A stretch of DNA of 22,290 nt from IMG/VR virus record IMGVR_UViG_2675903562_000009, one strand, 5' to 3'. Source of the stretch: a virus. Taxonomy: Duplodnaviria; Heunggongvirae; Uroviricota; Caudoviricetes. Position numbers and translations under genes: made by a program. Below the pieces are notes generated by a model. It made no database searches and was not told the origin of the DNA. It was given only the letters and a program-made list of their open reading frames with translations. How positions within the stretch are numbered: the stretch's first letter is position 1; every line of letters starts with the position of its first letter. Positions 3,588 to 18,746 of this stretch are shown one piece after another.

Positions 3588-3609
3588 TATTAGCCTCGTT
3601 GGTTAGCTA

Positions 3610-3828
3610 TTAACGTGGGTATGTAATCATTCTGGCAATGCTTAATGCCGCTGCTTTTTCCAGCCTGGTGATATCCTGCTCCAGAGCGGACAGATTTTCA
3701 GCCTGCTTAGCCCTGGCTTCATTGGCCCATTTCAGATCCTGCGCTGCATTAATTTTCTGGCGCATCCACTCATAAAGTTCATCATCGGTATAGTCTGGCG
3801 CGATGATGACGGGTTCTCGTTTCTGCAT
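3610..3828 (-). CDS. Hypothetical protein (72 aa), first gene downstream of the putative pL
   Basis: Track ORF; GAGGA SD about 6 nt upstream of the ATG at 3828; charged, helix-prone composition. Confidence 0.55.
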   Translation of the reverse strand: MQKREPVIIAPDYTDDELYEWMRQKINAAQDLKWANEARAKQAENLSALEQDITRLEKAAALSIARMITYPR

Positions 3829-4013
3829 ACTGATTCCTCGCGGTGCTGTTTCCCCTTAACGCCGGGGTGGCGGAACAAAAACCTGCTGCATAGTTATTAA
3901 AGTTGAACCCTGCCGTCATGTTCTTACGCCTCGGGCTGGCTACTTACCCCCTGACCACTGCCTGGTAACTCGAAGTATTGCCCTGCATTCTGTGGGGCGG
4001 GGTGGGTTGGTAT

Positions 4014-4048
4014 GTTGTTAAGGTAACAAGTGTTACCTTTCGAGTCAA
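4014..4048 (-). promoter_or_regulatory. Putative OL/pL: operator GGTAACAAGTGTTACC with leftward promoter-like hexamers
   Basis: Inverted repeat GTAAC-N4-GTTAC at 4023-4036, the same motif as the two sites between cI and cro. On the minus strand a TTGACT -35-like hexamer (plus 4043-4048) lies 17 bp from a weak -10 (TACCTT) that overlaps the operator. Confidence 0.4.
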
Positions 4049-4077
4049 TGCAATGTTGCAAAAAGTACATTTGAGGG

Positions 4078-4106
4078 CGTGAAAAACCCGCAATGAATGC
4101 GGGTTA
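4078..4106 (-). terminator. Rho-independent terminator downstream of cI
   Basis: Minus-strand hairpin AACCCGCA / loop TTCAT / TGCGGGTT followed by TTTTT, immediately after the cI stop codon at 4111. Confidence 0.7.
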
Positions 4107-4110
4107 TGAC

Positions 4111-4785
4111 TCAGTCTAAGTATTGATGTATTTGTGAAACTTTACCTTTAATGGTGTAACCACCATTCAGTTCGATGGGTTTGTAAAGCGGATTCAGTGA
4201 CAACAGATAGATGTTTGGTCCGTCAATCGCAACTTTTTTTAGTGTTACGTTTGGCGTTCCTTCCAATTGGATTAAGATTATTTTTCCCACCAGTTCTCTA
4301 ATGTTACTTGAGCATGGTGTGATCAGCACGGTAGATCCGTCGGGGATGGTTGGGAGGCCGTTAGAGTTTGTCATCGCATCTCCCTCAACATGCAATAAAA
4401 AAGAGTTTTCAGCGGTTTTTGTCATGACATCAACCCAATTCTTAATACCAGGAATCTCGGTTACTGGACAACTCATATCCCAATAACCAGCCTGTTCCCA
4501 CGTTAAAACGGGCAACCGGGCGATGTTGTCACTAATGTAAAGGTACTGATTCAGACGCAGATCATCGGTTTTATCGTGACCGTCCTTTCCATAAAGAATC
4601 CATTCAGGAGATTTGGAAAGCAATTTTGACAGTAGATGCAAATTCTCACCGTCAGGTTTTGAAGAGCCATTTTCCCATTTTGTTACGGATACACGAGATA
4701 TGCCGATTGCTTTCGCAACCTGCTGTTGGGTTAATCCAACGTCTTTTCGACGATTCCGAATACGTTCGCTGATAGTGTTTTTCAT
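4111..4785 (-). CDS. cI: CI-type prophage repressor (XRE-family HTH N-terminal domain, S24/LexA-like C-terminal domain with Ala at the nucleophile position)
   Basis: HTH segment LTQQQVAKAIGISRVSVTKWENG; C-terminal domain has the LexA/CI-like VEGDAMT motif and a downstream LKK lysine. Start placed at ATG 4785 (MKNTISERIRN...), where the operator abuts the start codon with no SD (leaderless-like); the track ORF extends to a TTG at 4884, and 4827 is an alternative ATG. Confidence 0.85.
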   Translation of the reverse strand: MKNTISERIRNRRKDVGLTQQQVAKAIGISRVSVTKWENGSSKPDGENLHLLSKLLSKSPEWILYGKDGHDKTDDLRLNQYLYISDNIARLPVLTWEQAGYWDMSCPVTEIPGIKNWVDVMTKTAENSFLLHVEGDAMTNSNGLPTIPDGSTVLITPCSSNIRELVGKIILIQLEGTPNVTLKKVAIDGPNIYLLSLNPLYKPIELNGGYTIKGKVSQIHQYLD

Positions 4786-4860
4786 GTAACCAATGTTACT
4801 ACCAAGTGATGTTGCTATGGTTGACATTGTAATGTAACTATTGTTACCCTCCTGCTCGAA
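4786..4860. promoter_or_regulatory. OR-like divergent control region between cI and cro, with repeated GTAAC-N4-GTTAC operators
   Basis: GTAACCAATGTTAC at 4786-4799 and GTAACTATTGTTAC at 4834-4847, centres 48 bp apart, with a degenerate candidate (GTTGCTATGGTTGA) midway giving about 24-bp spacing. TTGACA hexamer at 4821-4826. Confidence 0.6.
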
Positions 4861-4876
4861 ATAACAGGAGAGTTTT

Positions 4877-5092
4877 ATGTTCAAAGATGATGTTCTGCGC
4901 TATTTCAAAAAAAAGCGACTAGTAGCTGAGGCTCTTGGAATTTCACATGTGGCTGTTGTGCGGTGGAAAGCAGTTATTCCCAAACTTCGCGCAATGGAAC
5001 TGGATGAAATTACTAACGGTGAATTGAAATACAACCCAGAACTTTACAAGAAGCAGGATAGCACCTCGAACGAAGGAAAGAATGATTCATGA
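4877..5092 (+). CDS. cro: Cro-type repressor (P22 Cro-like)
   Basis: 71-aa ORF with GGAGAG SD; MFKDDVLRYFKKKRLVAEALGISHVAVVRWKAVIP resembles P22 Cro as remembered; divergent from cI across the operator region. Confidence 0.8.
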   Translation: MFKDDVLRYFKKKRLVAEALGISHVAVVRWKAVIPKLRAMELDEITNGELKYNPELYKKQDSTSNEGKNDS

Positions 5093-5514
5093 AAATCAAG
5101 CATGAACACATCCGCATGGCGATGAATGCCTGGGCGCGTCCTGATGGCGAAAAAGTTCCAGCAGCTGGAATAACCCAGGCTTATTTTGAGTTGGGTATGA
5201 CGTTCCCAGAACTGTATGACGACAGCCATCCGGAAGCCCTGGCTCGTAATACCCAGAAAATTTTCCGCTGGGTAGAGAAAGACACCCCTGATGCAGTTGA
5301 AAAAATTCAGGCGTTGTTACCAGCGATCGAAAAGGCAATGCCACCTTTGCTGGTGGCCAGAATGCGCAGCCACAGTTCAGCTTATTTTCGGGAGCTGGTG
5401 GAGACGCGGGAACGACTGGTGAGAGACGCTGATGATTTTGTCGCAGTGGCGATCGCTGGTTTCAATCAGATGAATCGTGGTGGCCCGGCAGGAAATGCCT
5501 TGGTGATGCACTAA
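5089..5514 (+). CDS. YdaT-family protein (CII-like regulator, sometimes annotated as a toxin)
   Basis: 141-aa ORF overlapping the cro stop (ATGA), AAGGAAAG SD; the N-terminus MKIKHEHI matches what I recall of Rac YdaT; occupies the cII position. Confidence 0.65.
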   Translation: MKIKHEHIRMAMNAWARPDGEKVPAAGITQAYFELGMTFPELYDDSHPEALARNTQKIFRWVEKDTPDAVEKIQALLPAIEKAMPPLLVARMRSHSSAYFRELVETRERLVRDADDFVAVAIAGFNQMNRGGPAGNALVMH

Positions 5515-9480: not shown

Positions 9481-9691
9481 AAACGGTTTGCAGTGAAAGG
9501 GGAGTTAAGTAGAATTGCTGCGGGTGCTTGAGGCTATCTGCCTCAGGCATGAACACCAAAAGGCAGATAGAGAAAAGCCCCAGTTAACATTACGCGTCCT
9601 GCAAGACGCTTAACATTAATCTGAGGCTCAATCTATGTCTCACAAATGTAGGTTAGCCTCTTACGTGCCGAAAGGCAAGGAGAAGCAGGCT

Positions 9692-9847
9692 ATGAAGCAG
9701 CAAAAGGCGATGTTAATCGCCCTTATCGTCATCTGTTTAACCGTCATAGTGACGGCACTGGTAACGAGGAAAGACCTCTGCGAGGTACGAATCCGAACCG
9801 GCCAGACGGAGGTCGCTGTCTTCACAGCTTACGAACCTGAGGAGTAA
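9692..9847 (+). CDS. hok: Hok/Gef-family type I toxin (51 aa) with in-frame upstream extension from 9635
   Basis: MKQQKAMLIALIVICLTVIVTALVTRKDLCEVRIRTGQTEVAVFTAYEPEE is near-identical in pattern to Gef/HokC as remembered; AAGGAGAAG SD; structured leader upstream and a 3' hairpin (GCGAGGG...CCCTCGC at 9856-9877) typical of hok mRNAs. Confidence 0.8.
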   Translation: MKQQKAMLIALIVICLTVIVTALVTRKDLCEVRIRTGQTEVAVFTAYEPEE

Positions 9848-13290: not shown

Positions 13291-13315
13291 AACCCGCTTA
13301 AATGCGGGTTTTTTG
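13291..13315 (+). terminator. Rho-independent terminator (tR'-like)
   Basis: AACCCGC-TTAAAT-GCGGGTT followed by TTTTTT. Confidence 0.75.
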
Positions 13316-13387
13316 CTTAACTCTGTGGACCTTTTTATCTGTAGTTGTAAGATATGGATATTCTTACAATTTAGGTCGGTGAGCTTA

Positions 13388-14152
13388 ATGGAAGAACAGC
13401 ACGGTAATTACTTTATAAAACGAATTCAGTTGATTGGAAGGGGTGCATTTGGCTTTGTTGAACACGTTAAGGTTTACAACCTCAACAAGGGTGAATGTGG
13501 GGATTATGCTAGAAAGGTTTTAGCCCCCGAAAAACCAGAGCTTTTGGCGCAAATAGAGCAGTTTAGAAGGCGTTTTAAAAGGGAGGTCGTGTATCAATCA
13601 CATTGCGTACATAGCAATATTGTTCCTATTTATTTGTGCGATTTGTTTGCCGAGAATCCATGGTTCATTATGGATAAAGCAGAATGTGATCTTGAGCACG
13701 AAATAACGAACAACCTTCTTACAACAGATCAAAAAATTTCAATAGTGAAAATGGTATTAGATGGTGTAGCTCACATCCATGCGAAAGGCTATTTACACAG
13801 AGATATAAAACCATTTAATGTCTTGCGATTTAGCGACGGAACATACAAGGTGTCTGATTTTGGTCTGGTAAAAGATACAAATCCCGAAGGGGATACCACT
13901 AAATTGACCGAGATCGGTACCCGTATGGGAAGTACAAGATATATGGCTCCCGAGATTTTATATAATGCCGAGTATTCAGTTAAGACTGATGTTTATGCGG
14001 TGGGGCGGTTAATTGAGGACTTAAATTTAGATGATAAAAAAATAAAGCCTATCATAGCGAAGTGTACCAGGATGGATAAAGATGATAGATATCAGACAAT
14101 AGATGATGTGGCGTTTGATTTTGTGCATTCTTTTTTAAGGAGTGAGTCATGA
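13388..14152 (+). CDS. Hanks-type (eukaryotic-like) Ser/Thr protein kinase
   Basis: 254 aa from ATG 13388. Gly-rich loop GRGAFGFV, lysine in YARKVL, catalytic loop HRDIKPFNVL, DFG (VSDFGLV) and APE (YMAPEIL) motifs all present; region is visibly AT-rich relative to neighbours (not computed). Confidence 0.85.
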   Translation: MEEQHGNYFIKRIQLIGRGAFGFVEHVKVYNLNKGECGDYARKVLAPEKPELLAQIEQFRRRFKREVVYQSHCVHSNIVPIYLCDLFAENPWFIMDKAECDLEHEITNNLLTTDQKISIVKMVLDGVAHIHAKGYLHRDIKPFNVLRFSDGTYKVSDFGLVKDTNPEGDTTKLTEIGTRMGSTRYMAPEILYNAEYSVKTDVYAVGRLIEDLNLDDKKIKPIIAKCTRMDKDDRYQTIDDVAFDFVHSFLRSES

Positions 14153-14892
14153 TTCAGCTGATAGCGACTTCATCATTCTCGTATCCAAAAGAACCAGGTA
14201 GGGTCAACGAAGATTCATTGCTTCCTCCCAAAATTGTAGGGGATGGCATCTTATTTGCCGTAGCTGATGGTGTAGGTTCATACACTGGTGCCAGTCAGGC
14301 TTCATCAATGGCAATTGCTGAACTTTCAGCATTGACAAGCTTATCTTTTGACACAGTTCCGGATGTATTTGATGAAGTTAAGCGAAAGGTTATGTCGTTA
14401 GCTGATGTTAATGATGAGTTCGATAAAGCTGCTACTACACTTACGTTTTGTTATGTTTGTGATAGCGGAATTATTATTGGTCATATTGGTGATTGTCGTT
14501 TGTATTGCATTGGAGAGAAGAAAGCATACCAATTGACGAAGGACGATACCAGGCATCAGATGCTAATTGATCAGAATATTTTTAAACCCAGAGATTTGAA
14601 GGATAAACCGGGCAAAAATATCTTAACGACGGCTATAGCCTCAAATGTTGATATGGAATACGACTGTGATTTTATCACATGGAAAGATTTACCTAGTATT
14701 AACGGGGTATATCATCTGTGTATCATGTCTGATGGGGTTCATAACGTTTGGGAAAAACGCCCCAGATTTACATCAAATACGATGAGTAATAGTCAGAAGT
14801 TTTCTAATGGCATTTTGCGTCGTATAGAGAGAGCCGGACCTGATGATGACTTTTCTTTAGTAAGTATAATGGTGCGTGTGACGTCAGATTAG
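14149..14892 (+). CDS. PP2C-family Ser/Thr protein phosphatase
   Basis: 247 aa; start overlaps the kinase stop (ATGA) with AAGGAG SD; metal-binding motifs VNEDS, AVADGVGS, GDCR and MSDGV typical of bacterial PP2C phosphatases. Confidence 0.85.
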   Translation: MIQLIATSSFSYPKEPGRVNEDSLLPPKIVGDGILFAVADGVGSYTGASQASSMAIAELSALTSLSFDTVPDVFDEVKRKVMSLADVNDEFDKAATTLTFCYVCDSGIIIGHIGDCRLYCIGEKKAYQLTKDDTRHQMLIDQNIFKPRDLKDKPGKNILTTAIASNVDMEYDCDFITWKDLPSINGVYHLCIMSDGVHNVWEKRPRFTSNTMSNSQKFSNGILRRIERAGPDDDFSLVSIMVRVTSD

Positions 14893-16558: not shown

Positions 16559-16634
16559 GGCCCTTTAGCTCAGTGGTGAGAGCGAGCGACTCATAATCGC
16601 CAGGTCGCTGGTTCAAATCCAGCAAGGGCCACCA
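16559..16634 (+). tRNA. tRNA with CAU anticodon; closely resembles E. coli tRNA-Ile2 (ileX-type, lysidine-dependent), Met not excluded
   Basis: 76 nt with perfect 7-bp acceptor stem (GGCCCTT/AAGGGCC), D-arm GCTCAGTGGTGAGAGC, anticodon loop CTCATAA, T-loop TTCAAAT and encoded CCA. Confidence 0.85.
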
Positions 16635-16635
16635 A

Positions 16636-16712
16636 CCGTCACCAGTTCATCAGGAAAGAGCGTCAACCCTTTAAGTTGAGTGTGCGAGGTTCGAGTCCTC
16701 GGTGGCGGGCCA
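16636..16712 (+). tRNA. Non-canonical tRNA-like gene (anticodon loop CCTTTAA, nominal UUU) or tRNA pseudogene
   Basis: Acceptor stem CCGTCAC/GTGGCGG (one G-U), T-arm CGAGG-TTCGAGT-CCTCG and encoded CCA, but C at positions 8 and 33 and an atypical D-arm. Begins 1 nt after the preceding tRNA. Confidence 0.45.
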
Positions 16713-16714
16713 GT

Positions 16715-16790
<76 letters not shown>

Positions 16791-16793
16791 TAT

Positions 16794-16868
<75 letters not shown>

Positions 16869-17206: not shown

Positions 17207-17292
17207 CATATCCTCGCCACACCCGGCGCATATCACATCAAATAACGCCGCGCAAAAGGCATCTGCGGGCGCCTTTGACGGGGTGTTTTTAC

Positions 17293-17314
17293 GGGCCGCT
17301 GGTGGCCCTTTTTT
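17293..17314 (+). terminator. Rho-independent terminator (third of a stack), 20 nt upstream of the next start codon
   Basis: GGGCC-GCTGGT-GGCCC followed by TTTTTT. Confidence 0.65.
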
Positions 17315-17333
17315 ATTTACAGGAGAAAAACGT

Positions 17334-18746
17334 ATGTCTGAACCCTTATCTGGTTCCGGCACGGCTGCGGCGCTCGGTGGGGCGACGGTATTCGGGCTGT
17401 TTACCGGAACGGATTTCGGGATTGTGTTTGGTGCGTTCGCCGGGGCGTTATTTGTGGCAACGATGCCGCAGGCGCTTTCAATCTGGCGTGTGGTGGCGCA
17501 TTTTTTGGTGTCGTTTATCGTCGGCGTGCTGGGGGCGCGCGTGCTGTCAGCCTGGATTGCATCAAAAACAGGGTATGACGGTACATCGGCAGATGCGCTG
17601 TGTGCGGTGCTGGTATCGGTGGTGTCGGTGAAGATTGCGGATATCAGGCAGGTTGAAACCACAGCACGCTATCTTGGCACGGCGCTGTACTGGATAGCCG
17701 CCAGTATCAATATCAGGCCGGGCCATAATTATTATTTTTACGTTCGCAGTGTGAACACCGTTGGCAAATCGGCATTCGTGGAGGCTGTTGGTCAGCCGAG
17801 TGATGACGCATCCGGCTATCTGGATTTTTTCAAAGGCGAGATAGGGAAAACCCATCTGGCTCAGGAGCTGTGGACGCAGATTGATAACGGTCAGCTTGCG
17901 CCTGACCTGGCTGAAATCAGGACATCCATTACGGATGTCAGCAATGAAATCACACAGACCGTCAATAAGAAACTGGAAGACCAGAGTGCAGCGATCCAGC
18001 AGATACAGAAGGTTCAGGTTGATACAAATAATAACCTGAACAGCATGTGGGCTGTGAAGCTGCAGCAGATGCAGGACGGACGCCTTTATATCGCGGGTAT
18101 CGGTGCCGGTATTGAGAATACGCCAGCAGGCATGCAGAGTCAGGTGCTGCTGGCGGCAGACAGGATTGCGATGATTAATCCTGCGAATGGCAACACAAAG
18201 CCGATGTTTGTTGGTCAGGGCGATCAGATATTCATGAACGAAGTGTTCCTGAAATATCTGACGGCTCCCACCATTACCAGCGGCGGTAATCCTCCGGCAT
18301 TTTCCCTGACACCGGACGGAAAGCTGACCGCTAAAAATGCGGATATCAGTGGCAGTGTGAATGCGAACTCCGGGACGCTCAACAACGTCACGATTAACGA
18401 GAACTGCCGGGTTCTGGGAAAACTGTCCGCGAACCAGATTGAAGGCGATCTCGTTAAAACAGTGGGCAAAGCTTTCCCCCGGGACTCCCGTGCACCGGAG
18501 CGGTGGCCATCAGGGACCATTACCGTCAGGGTTTATGACGATCAGCCGTTTGACCGGCAAATTGTTATTCCGGCGGTGGCATTCAGTGGCGCTAAGCATG
18601 AGAGAGAGCATACTGATATTTACTCCTCATGCCGTCTGATAGTGCGGAAAAACGGTGCTGAAATTTATAACCGTACCGCGCTGGATAATACGCTGATTTA
18701 CAGTGGCGTTCCCGCCGTCACATGCCGGGACCATCACCGTGTATGA
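17334..18746 (+). CDS. Chimeric ORF: about 100-aa hydrophobic N-terminus joined to a C-terminal fragment resembling tail-tip host-specificity protein J; likely a deletion remnant
   Basis: ATG 17334 with AGGAGA SD. First ~100 aa contain three hydrophobic stretches. From about [42 protein letters not shown] onward the sequence parallels the C-terminal third of lambda J as remembered ([42 protein letters not shown]). Confidence 0.6.

Follow-up and report, generated by a model that had tools for sequence, protein, structure and literature searches.

GTAAC-N4-GTTAC repeats as putative operators in the lysis-lysogeny switch carried by a defective lambdoid prophage

In phage lambda, the three right operators (OR1 to OR3) are spaced 24 and 23 bp apart from centre to centre, while in phage P22 the operator half-site is TTAAG, arranged around four central bases (TTAAG-N4-CTTAA core). 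In the switch of prophage CP-933P, which carries a cro-like ydaS gene and ydaT, the mRNA of the repressor PaaR2 (a short protein, approximately 15 kDa with its His tag) was found experimentally to be leaderless, and the operators, which are 18-bp palindromes with the consensus GTTTAGTAA, were located at pR/pRM (i.e., the rightward early promoter and the repressor promoter) and at pL, the leftward early promoter (PMC8630535). The present analysis concerns the immunity region of a 22,290-bp stretch of tailed-phage DNA (IMG/VR record IMGVR_UViG_2675903562_000009, referred to as the window), in which three copies of the inverted repeat GTAAC-N4-GTTAC flank a repressor gene. With a probability of about 85%, judged from sequence comparisons, these repeats would be the strong operators of a lambda/P22-type lysis-lysogeny switch in a defective lambdoid prophage. 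The features of this region, including the ranks of putative operators by position weight matrix (PWM) score, are as follows.

4023-4036, no strand: putative left operator OL1, GTAACAAGTGTTAC, exact match to the motif, PWM rank 3
4786-4799, no strand: putative operator OR3, GTAACCAATGTTAC, exact match, PWM rank 2, directly abutting the ATG of the repressor gene
4811-4824, no strand: degenerate candidate OR2, GTTGCTATGGTTGA, with 6 of 10 half-site bases, its right half overlapping the pR -35 hexamer
4834-4847, no strand: putative operator OR1, GTAACTATTGTTAC, exact match, PWM rank 1
4111-4785, minus strand: repressor gene, 224 amino acids (aa), assigned from Pfam domains HTH_3 and Peptidase_S24, from sequence matches in the PDB and from the start-site argument given below
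4877-5092, plus strand: cro, 71 aa, P22_Cro family (Pfam PF14549, E=2.9e-16), with the Shine-Dalgarno (SD) sequence AGGAG at 4866-4870

Similarities to lambda include divergent repressor and cro genes, three phased palindromes over predicted back-to-back promoters and an operator at the leftward early promoter. The OR sites are phased about 2.2-2.4 helical turns apart (25 and 23 bp), the C-terminal domain of the repressor is homologous to that of CI and the repressor start lacks an SD sequence, as does that of leaderless cI. In contrast with the 17-bp sites of lambda, those of the window have a 14-bp core with 5-bp half-sites of unrelated sequence, the centre of OR3 lies about -7.5 from the proposed start as opposed to about -20, only one strong OL site is present, a YdaT-family protein appears in the role of CII and the repressor lacks the catalytic Ser. 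With respect to P22, the closest solved relative of the repressor N-terminal domain is C2 (1adr and 2r1j, E=2.6e-12). Over its full length the protein, which has a lambda-CI-like C-terminal domain, can be aligned with lambda CI (E=1e-13). Cro is a member of the P22_Cro family, and the sites share the geometry of those of P22, with 5-bp half-sites surrounding a freely varying 4-bp centre. The central TAA of the P22 half-site also occurs in GTAAC, but the outer and inner positions differ, as do four of the eight positions of the recognition helix (SRVSVTKW in the window as opposed to SNVAISQW in C2). A different immunity specificity is therefore expected, and the window sites do not have the operator specificity of the P22 immunity group.

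Like CP-933P, the window has a Cro-like protein followed by YdaT, and in both a YdaT-type repeat is located where the cro-like gene has its 3' end (PMC8630535, PMC9986795). PaaR2, however, is encoded in an operon with a toxin-antitoxin pair, whereas the window repressor has a C-terminal S24-peptidase domain, and the locus contains neither GTTTAGTAA operators nor a short PaaR2-type repressor. The operon of ydfC, DicF and dicB under a pL-like promoter beside the repressor gene resembles the DicA/DicC region of Qin, although DicA is short and without an S24 domain. In RefSeq the repressor carries the product name 'LexA family protein'. Only the S24 domain is shared with LexA. The N-terminal domain is HTH_3 (i.e., Cro/C1-type) as opposed to the winged-helix domain of LexA, and the SOS box consensus, CTGT-N8-ACAG, is unrelated to the window motif. 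The module would operate in the manner of the lambda and P22 switches but lies outside the P22, lambda, 434, CP-933P and DicA immunity groups. The literature consulted yielded no paper in which both half-sites appear as an operator or in which any one of six operator 14-mers is given exactly, and papers on ZF40 and the telomere phages did not describe this operator either. The binding sequence is apparently previously undescribed, an earlier in-silico prediction for some member being possible. A computational survey of Cro/OR half-site pairs was reportedly made by Hall, Lefevre and Cordes in 2005, in which one of the present operator family may be covered. The locus represents an uncharacterised immunity specificity of an ordinary lambdoid switch, which leaves the understanding of lambdoid switches unchanged and is no surprise to the specialist.

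A pattern search of the whole window with GTAACNNNNGTTAC confirmed the original prediction of three exact copies at 4023, 4786 and 4834, compared with 0.01 expected from dinucleotide-preserving shuffles, and none of 100 shuffles contained three or more. When two mismatches were allowed, the number of extra matches remained at background level (11 versus 6.5 expected). In the 40-kb chromosomal stretch surrounding a near-identical prophage, the same three sites were found with no further exact matches. The claimed separation of the right-hand pair was borne out by the coordinates, the start-to-start distance from OR3 to OR1 being 48 bp. The sites also flank the repressor gene as described, this gene encoding the HTH_3 and Peptidase_S24 protein and lying opposite the P22_Cro-family gene, from which it diverges with start codons 91 bp apart. 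OR3 is contiguous with CAT at 4783-4785, the minus-strand ATG of the repressor. Among the 22,277 window positions scored with a PWM derived from sites of other lineages only, the three sites occupied the top three places (21.9, 20.3 and 17.2 bits) while the fourth-best position scored 12.1.

Conservation of these sites was evident from the loci of repressor homologs, which were gathered from 89% down to 36% identity. In every locus that kept the recognition helix G[VI]SRV[ST][VI]TKWE, CAT was followed immediately by GTAAC-N4-GTTAC (OR3) and then by OR1 exactly 48 bp to the right. The motif-bearing loci comprised six Escherichia coli copies, two Salmonella-like contigs, those of Hamiltonella, Yersinia and Edwardsiella and four phages (Klebsiella ST101-KPC2phi6.3, E. 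coli vB_EcoS-733R5, Pantoea AH07 and Pectobacterium ZF40). The OR3 14-mer was identical, spacer included, in 9 of 12 loci and always adjoined CAT, and the 25+23 bp phasing of OR3, OR2 and OR1 (i.e., 0/+25/+48) was fixed in all 12 as well as in phage ZF40, five sequenced phages and repressors down to about 42% identity being covered by the comparison. The OR1 sequence was GTAACTATTGTTAC in loci of the E. coli/Salmonella type; Hamiltonella had GTAACTATTATTAC, with one mismatch, and Yersinia, Edwardsiella, Klebsiella and Pantoea had GTACC(T/C)TT(T/A)GTTAC. In an ungapped alignment of eight lineages, the conserved elements were CAT, OR3, a block from +25 to +38, the pR -35 and OR1 with the three bases that follow, whereas the 11-bp and 9-bp gaps between OR sites were unconserved. 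On the left side, the half-sites of OL1 were invariant in copies of 83-98% DNA identity while the spacer varied (AAGT, AGAA or AAGA) and the flanks diverged. Invariant half-sites with a free centre and free flanks are what would be expected as the footprint of a dimeric helix-turn-helix (HTH) protein that reads two 5-bp half-sites and leaves the centre unread.

The repressor recognition helix was nearly invariant while overall identity fell to about 42%, the invariant residues including T19, Q20, R31, S33, W37 and E38, and the Cro recognition helix S-H-x-A-V-x-R/K-W (SHVAVVRW in the window) was kept in all operator-sharing loci. Results for two control loci were in agreement with a role of these helices. 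Thus, no site was found even at one mismatch in locus L017, the repressor and Cro helices of which are DRASISQWE and TPQLVYQW, respectively, and which has TTTAC-N4-GTAAA repeats instead. Similarly, no GTAAC-N4-GTTAC site was found in phage PhiR42_1, which shares the ydfC flank of the window and encodes a DicA-like repressor (SHVSVSQWE); its palindromes are TTAG(T/C)-N4-(A/G)CTAA, and those of both controls have a 5+4+5 arrangement. Because the motif is lost with the helices in both controls, it tracks the DNA-reading surfaces of the repressor and Cro and not the flanking genes, and from this co-variation both proteins are predicted to bind the sites. The earlier proposal of a candidate operator consensus with its own immunity specificity is therefore consistent with the half-sites and phasing kept across loci and with the co-varying helices.

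The immunity core (3990-5095) was present in 718 of 5,426 complete E. coli genomes (approximately 13%), while no sequenced phage carried it above about 75% DNA identity. A search of species-representative genome contigs with the repressor gave only two irrelevant HTH matches (Firmicutes/Mollicutes metagenome-assembled genomes), and these representative genomes therefore evidently lack the prophage.

The relation of the sites to transcription signals depends on the following predictions.

4821-4826, plus strand: predicted pR -35, TTGACA, invariant in the six E. coli/Salmonella-type loci and Hamiltonella
4845-4850, plus strand: predicted pR -10, TACCCT, with an 18-bp spacer to the -35
4043-4048, minus strand: predicted pL -35, TTGACT, with a 17-bp spacer to the -10
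4020-4025, minus strand: predicted pL -10, TACCTT, its first three bases being the last three of the OL1 half-site
4793-4798, minus strand: candidate pRM -10, TAACAT, located within OR3, 7 nt ahead of the A of the ATG
4082-4105, minus strand: intrinsic terminator 3' of the repressor gene, an ACCCGCA/TGCGGGT stem followed by U5, with a fold of -13.4 kcal/mol

The pR pair was the best rightward candidate, the same offset (+59) being top in 8 of 10 lineages, and OR1 occupies its spacer and the first three bases of its -10. The left site, which had been expected where pL should be, lies 6 bp downstream of the TTGACT -35 and overlaps the TACCTT -10 on the minus strand. In related loci AGTCAA was kept 6 bp from the left operator, and the arrangement at the pL -10, in which the shared TAC is followed by CTT or ATT, was kept in six (L001, L002, L007, L008, L009 and L010). 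A sigma-70 promoter scan of 3600-5200 gave no match at the scan thresholds, and pR and pL are therefore predictions that depend on conservation and on scoring done for this analysis. The predicted overlap of operators with promoters is consistent and conserved for pR and pL; for pRM, the candidate is the weak hexamer TAACAT. The terminator, which is kept in related loci, separates the repressor gene from pL and insulates this promoter from repressor transcripts.

Several observations weigh against the assignment of the repeats to a switch of this type. In the window, the match of OR2 to the half-sites is limited to 6 of 10 bases, and close copies differ in the left half of this site (GTTGC, GTTAC or GTCAC), which may therefore be non-functional in the present prophage. 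The repressor start annotated in RefSeq, if true, would put OR3 inside coding sequence. In addition, scoring against the consensus gave no good leftward promoter, the -35 hexamer paired with TAACAT (ACCATA) is poor and located within OR2, and the predicted starts of pR and pRM are about 72 bp apart, a distance at which the activating contact made from OR2 in lambda is not geometrically reproduced.

The first of these points bears on the alternative that OR1, OR3 and OL1 alone are functional, the right operator having two sites and 4811-4824 being either a degenerated remnant or nothing more than the pR -35 region. The original prediction placed a degenerate candidate between OR3 and OR1, and one was indeed found at 4811-4824, 25 and 23 bp from its neighbours, with a clear counterpart at that offset in distant relatives. 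By itself, GTTGCTATGGTTGA at this position is not significant, and its PWM score of -2.5 bits compares poorly with 17-22 bits for the strong sites. The variation of its left half extends to copies of 83-98% identity, and its right half, GTTGA, could be explained by the overlapping -35 TTGACA. On the other hand, the site ranked 89 of 22,277 by PWM (top 0.4%) at a position predicted in advance, and distant relatives have GTAACTGTTGTTTG or GTAACTTTTGTTTG, with 8 of 10 half-site bases, at exactly the same +25 offset, the clear OR2 GTAACTGTTGTTTG being carried by four loci (L012, L013, L014 and L016). In the left half, G1, T2 and usually C5 persist in independent lineages amid otherwise free sequence, while overlap with the pR -35 (TTGACA here and TTTGCT/TTGCTA in distant relatives) always deprives the right half of its outer GT. 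Furthermore, the lambda-CI-like C-terminal domain could supply the cooperativity needed to fill a weak site. The +25 site of relatives, the persistent bases and the PWM rank thus argue that 4811-4824 is the homolog of a real OR2 that has been weakened in this lineage, and a two-site right operator, although possible, is the less favoured interpretation.

Regarding the repressor start, the claim that the 4786 site abuts a leaderless cI start was in keeping with results for related loci, in which an ATG adjoined OR3 in 11 of 11 and was preceded by an SD sequence in none, compared with an SD sequence for cro in 10 of 11. The RefSeq start is the ATG at 4827, 42 nt further upstream, which gives a protein of 238 aa (WP_001394126.1 and relatives). 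This start was rejected on four grounds. Conservation of the 14 extra codons is confined to those that coincide with OR3 (...N-I-G-Y) or the pR -35 (M-S-T), the codons between these elements varying across loci, distant homologs are called from the OR3-abutting ATG, the alignment with P22 C2 begins at residue 5 and the Hamiltonella locus has no such extension. The repressor is thus corrected to 224 aa as opposed to 238, the extra codons being OR3 and the pR -35 in translation. The early start, 14 codons too far upstream (4786-4827, minus strand), is used by RefSeq/PGAP and by several metagenome gene callers, and the same artefact, with extensions ending in NIGY, NIDY or NLNY, appears in homologs of Arsenophonus, Pantoea phage AH07 and ZF40.

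Among leftward TAnnnT hexamers, TAACAT alone recurred at a constant position from lineage to lineage, and the second spacer base, which forms its final T, was conserved in OR3 and not in OL1. An alternative pRM -10, TACAAT (4831-4826, minus strand), was rejected as not positionally recurrent, the 7-9 bp gap in which it lies being unconserved across lineages. Because OR3 abuts the ATG and holds the only conserved leftward -10-like hexamer, and because no SD sequence is present, the repressor mRNA is probably leaderless. Leaderless repressor mRNAs have been documented for lambda cI and CP-933P paaR2 (PMC8630535). The likeness to lambda OR1-3 that had been proposed holds with respect to three phased sites and is imperfect with respect to the distance between predicted pR and pRM starts. 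This distance is 82 bp in lambda, one helical turn more than the approximately 72 bp predicted here, which puts OR2 over the pRM -35 and not beside it, so that positive autoregulation cannot be assumed. Repressor at OR2 could activate pRM as in lambda or could repress it.

The interpretation of the repeats as operators was also compared with two explanations that involve no binding by the repressor or Cro. If the likeness of the repeats came from duplication or homology of the pL and pR promoter modules (with a shared -35, spacer and -10) and not from a protein reader, the nearly equal register of OL1 and OR1 to TTGAC(T/A) and TACC(T/C)T would be expected, yet OR3 lies outside that promoter context and is the most conserved copy. 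Moreover, conservation is two-fold symmetric across the half-sites with central bases free at OL1, and loss of the motif goes with altered recognition helices in the repressor as well as in Cro; this explanation is very improbable. Least probable of all is that the palindromes are RNA hairpins (i.e., attenuators or terminators) or are recognised by some other factor, for instance YdaT or a restriction-modification enzyme, since, although the repeats are inverted and the OL1 region with its flanks folds at -8.8 kcal/mol, hairpins of OR3 and OR1 reach only -3 to -3.9 kcal/mol and lie upstream of or at predicted transcription starts, the YdaT repeat differs (TTGATTN6AATCAA) and sits separately at 5082-5099, and three positions near promoters in 40 kb would be too restricted a distribution for a restriction-modification target.

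With the repeats taken as operators, a dimer of the 224-aa repressor would bind GTAAC-N4-GTTAC with one recognition helix per 5-bp half-site, the central 4 bp not being directly read. Repressor on OR1 would cover the spacer and -10 of pR and so silence cro, ydaT and the replication genes, while repressor on OL1 would cover the pL -10 and silence the ydfC-DicF-dicB operon. The weak OR2, 23 bp from OR1, would probably be filled cooperatively and would cover the pR -35, and pRM would be shut off when Cro, or repressor in excess, occupied OR3. Cro, with its P22_Cro fold, would be expected to act on the same sites.

Features of self-cleavage that are present in the repressor include an Ala-Gly site (QAG, aa 98-100) and the Lys (LKK). 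The Ser-Lys dyad for RecA-stimulated self-cleavage is incomplete, however, as the nucleophile is replaced by Ala137 (GCG, 4375-4377, minus strand) in the sequence GDAMT, which corresponds to GNSMT of lambda (Ser149) and GMSMK of LexA (Ser119). Ser was present at this position in 72 of 76 homologs. The Ala allele was noted in the window, in the ST131 and O111 copies and in a Salmonella relative, while an E. coli variant of 83% identity has Ser. Replacement of the catalytic Ser by Ala abolishes self-cleavage of both LexA and lambda CI. For the repressor of the window, resistance to cleavage is therefore predicted, so that the SOS response would not inactivate it (i.e., it would not be SOS-inducible). 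This substitution affects inducibility and not operator function.

These findings provide a testable operator consensus, GTA(A/C)C-N4-GTTAC, with OR3, OR2 and OR1 at 0/+25/+48 and OL at pL, for an immunity region that approximately 13% of the complete E. coli genomes carry, ST131 and O111 among them, with relatives in phages of many enterobacterial genera. The consensus predicts which phages should be homo-immune, which is useful for annotation and for prediction of cross-immunity, and would point to the factor that silences the division inhibitors DicB and DicF in carrier strains. A broader interpretation, which is tentative and as a single joint claim rather unlikely, is that the operator, the fixed 48-bp OR geometry and both recognition helices together constitute a frozen 'immunity supergroup' common to temperate phages from nine or more genera (Escherichia, Salmonella, Klebsiella, Yersinia, Pantoea, Edwardsiella, Pectobacterium (ZF40), Hamiltonella and Arsenophonus), the C-terminal domain of the repressor having diverged meanwhile (approximately 42% overall identity). 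According to the same claim, the prophage at ompW would have kept the module intact with a catalytically dead repressor (Ser137 to Ala) in approximately 13% of complete E. coli genomes, the module would have been domesticated as a permanent, SOS-noninducible silencer of dicB/DicF and the pR-side genes, and it would in addition protect, by cross-immunity, against incoming phages that belong to this group.

Additional features were noted to the left of OL1 and to the right of cro.

4055-4068, no strand: possible weak second left operator OL2, GTTGCAAAAAGTAC, 6 of 10 half-site bases, 32 bp from OL1
5089-5514, plus strand: ydaT-like gene, the CII equivalent (Pfam PF06254, E=7.4e-10)
5082-5099, no strand: YdaT-type inverted repeat, ATGATTCATGAAAATCAA, one mismatch to TTGATTN6AATCAA and the sole such match in the window

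The OL2 candidate, which ranked 18 of 22,277 by PWM (top 0.08%), is considered tentative. A good second left site was found 32-35 bp from the first in relatives L007, L012 and L013/14, and the number of OL sites thus varies within the operator family. The two good left operators lie at 2261-2309 in L007 (plus strand; 1409-1457 in window orientation), at 1420-1467 in L012 and at 1405-1450 in L013. Leftward from pL, the minus-strand operon consists of ydfC, the DicF RNA (2616-2667) and dicB. The leader between pL and ydfC, approximately 185 nt of minus-strand RNA (about 3829-4016), was strongly conserved in the copy of 83% identity and partly in a relative of 66% identity. When examined as a nut/put-like RNA, it had no Rfam match above noise and its fold was not better than that of shuffled sequence (z=+1.6). 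The same leader occurs, at 76-98% identity, in 12 phages that have other immunity regions; in these it either lacks an annotation or is wrongly labelled 'head-DNA stabilization protein D'.

To the right of cro, the repeat ATGATTCATGAAAATCAA spans the cro stop and ydaT start, the same position as that of the footprinted OM/pRE of CP-933P, and it was kept in L001, L002 and L008, a similar repeat being present in Yersinia. The YdaT-family protein is the CII equivalent of some lambdoid prophages (PMC9986795), and 5082-5099 is probably, by its sequence and position, the site of the CII equivalent in a pRE region. Right of ydaT are O-like and DnaC-like replication genes, hok/sok, RusA, Q, a kinase/phosphatase pair, a methylase and three tRNAs. 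In a genome with a 100%-identical immunity core, the element is located at ompW beside int, xis and exo. The open reading frame at 17283-18746 (plus strand) fuses a holin domain (aa 18-119) to the Ig and C-terminal domains of tail-tip protein J (aa 116-474), a fusion that implies loss of the lysis, terminase, head and tail genes by deletion, so that the prophage is defective. A related copy in RefSeq has truncated endolysin/lysis and tail genes. The sok/hokD type I toxin-antitoxin locus lies at 9522-9697 (plus strand), genes for a eukaryotic-type Ser/Thr kinase and a PP2C phosphatase occupy 13313-14892 (plus strand) directly downstream of the antiterminator Q gene, and the three tRNA genes, which according to their RefSeq names are for Ile, Lys and Gly, are located at 16559-16865 (plus strand) upstream of the lysis region.

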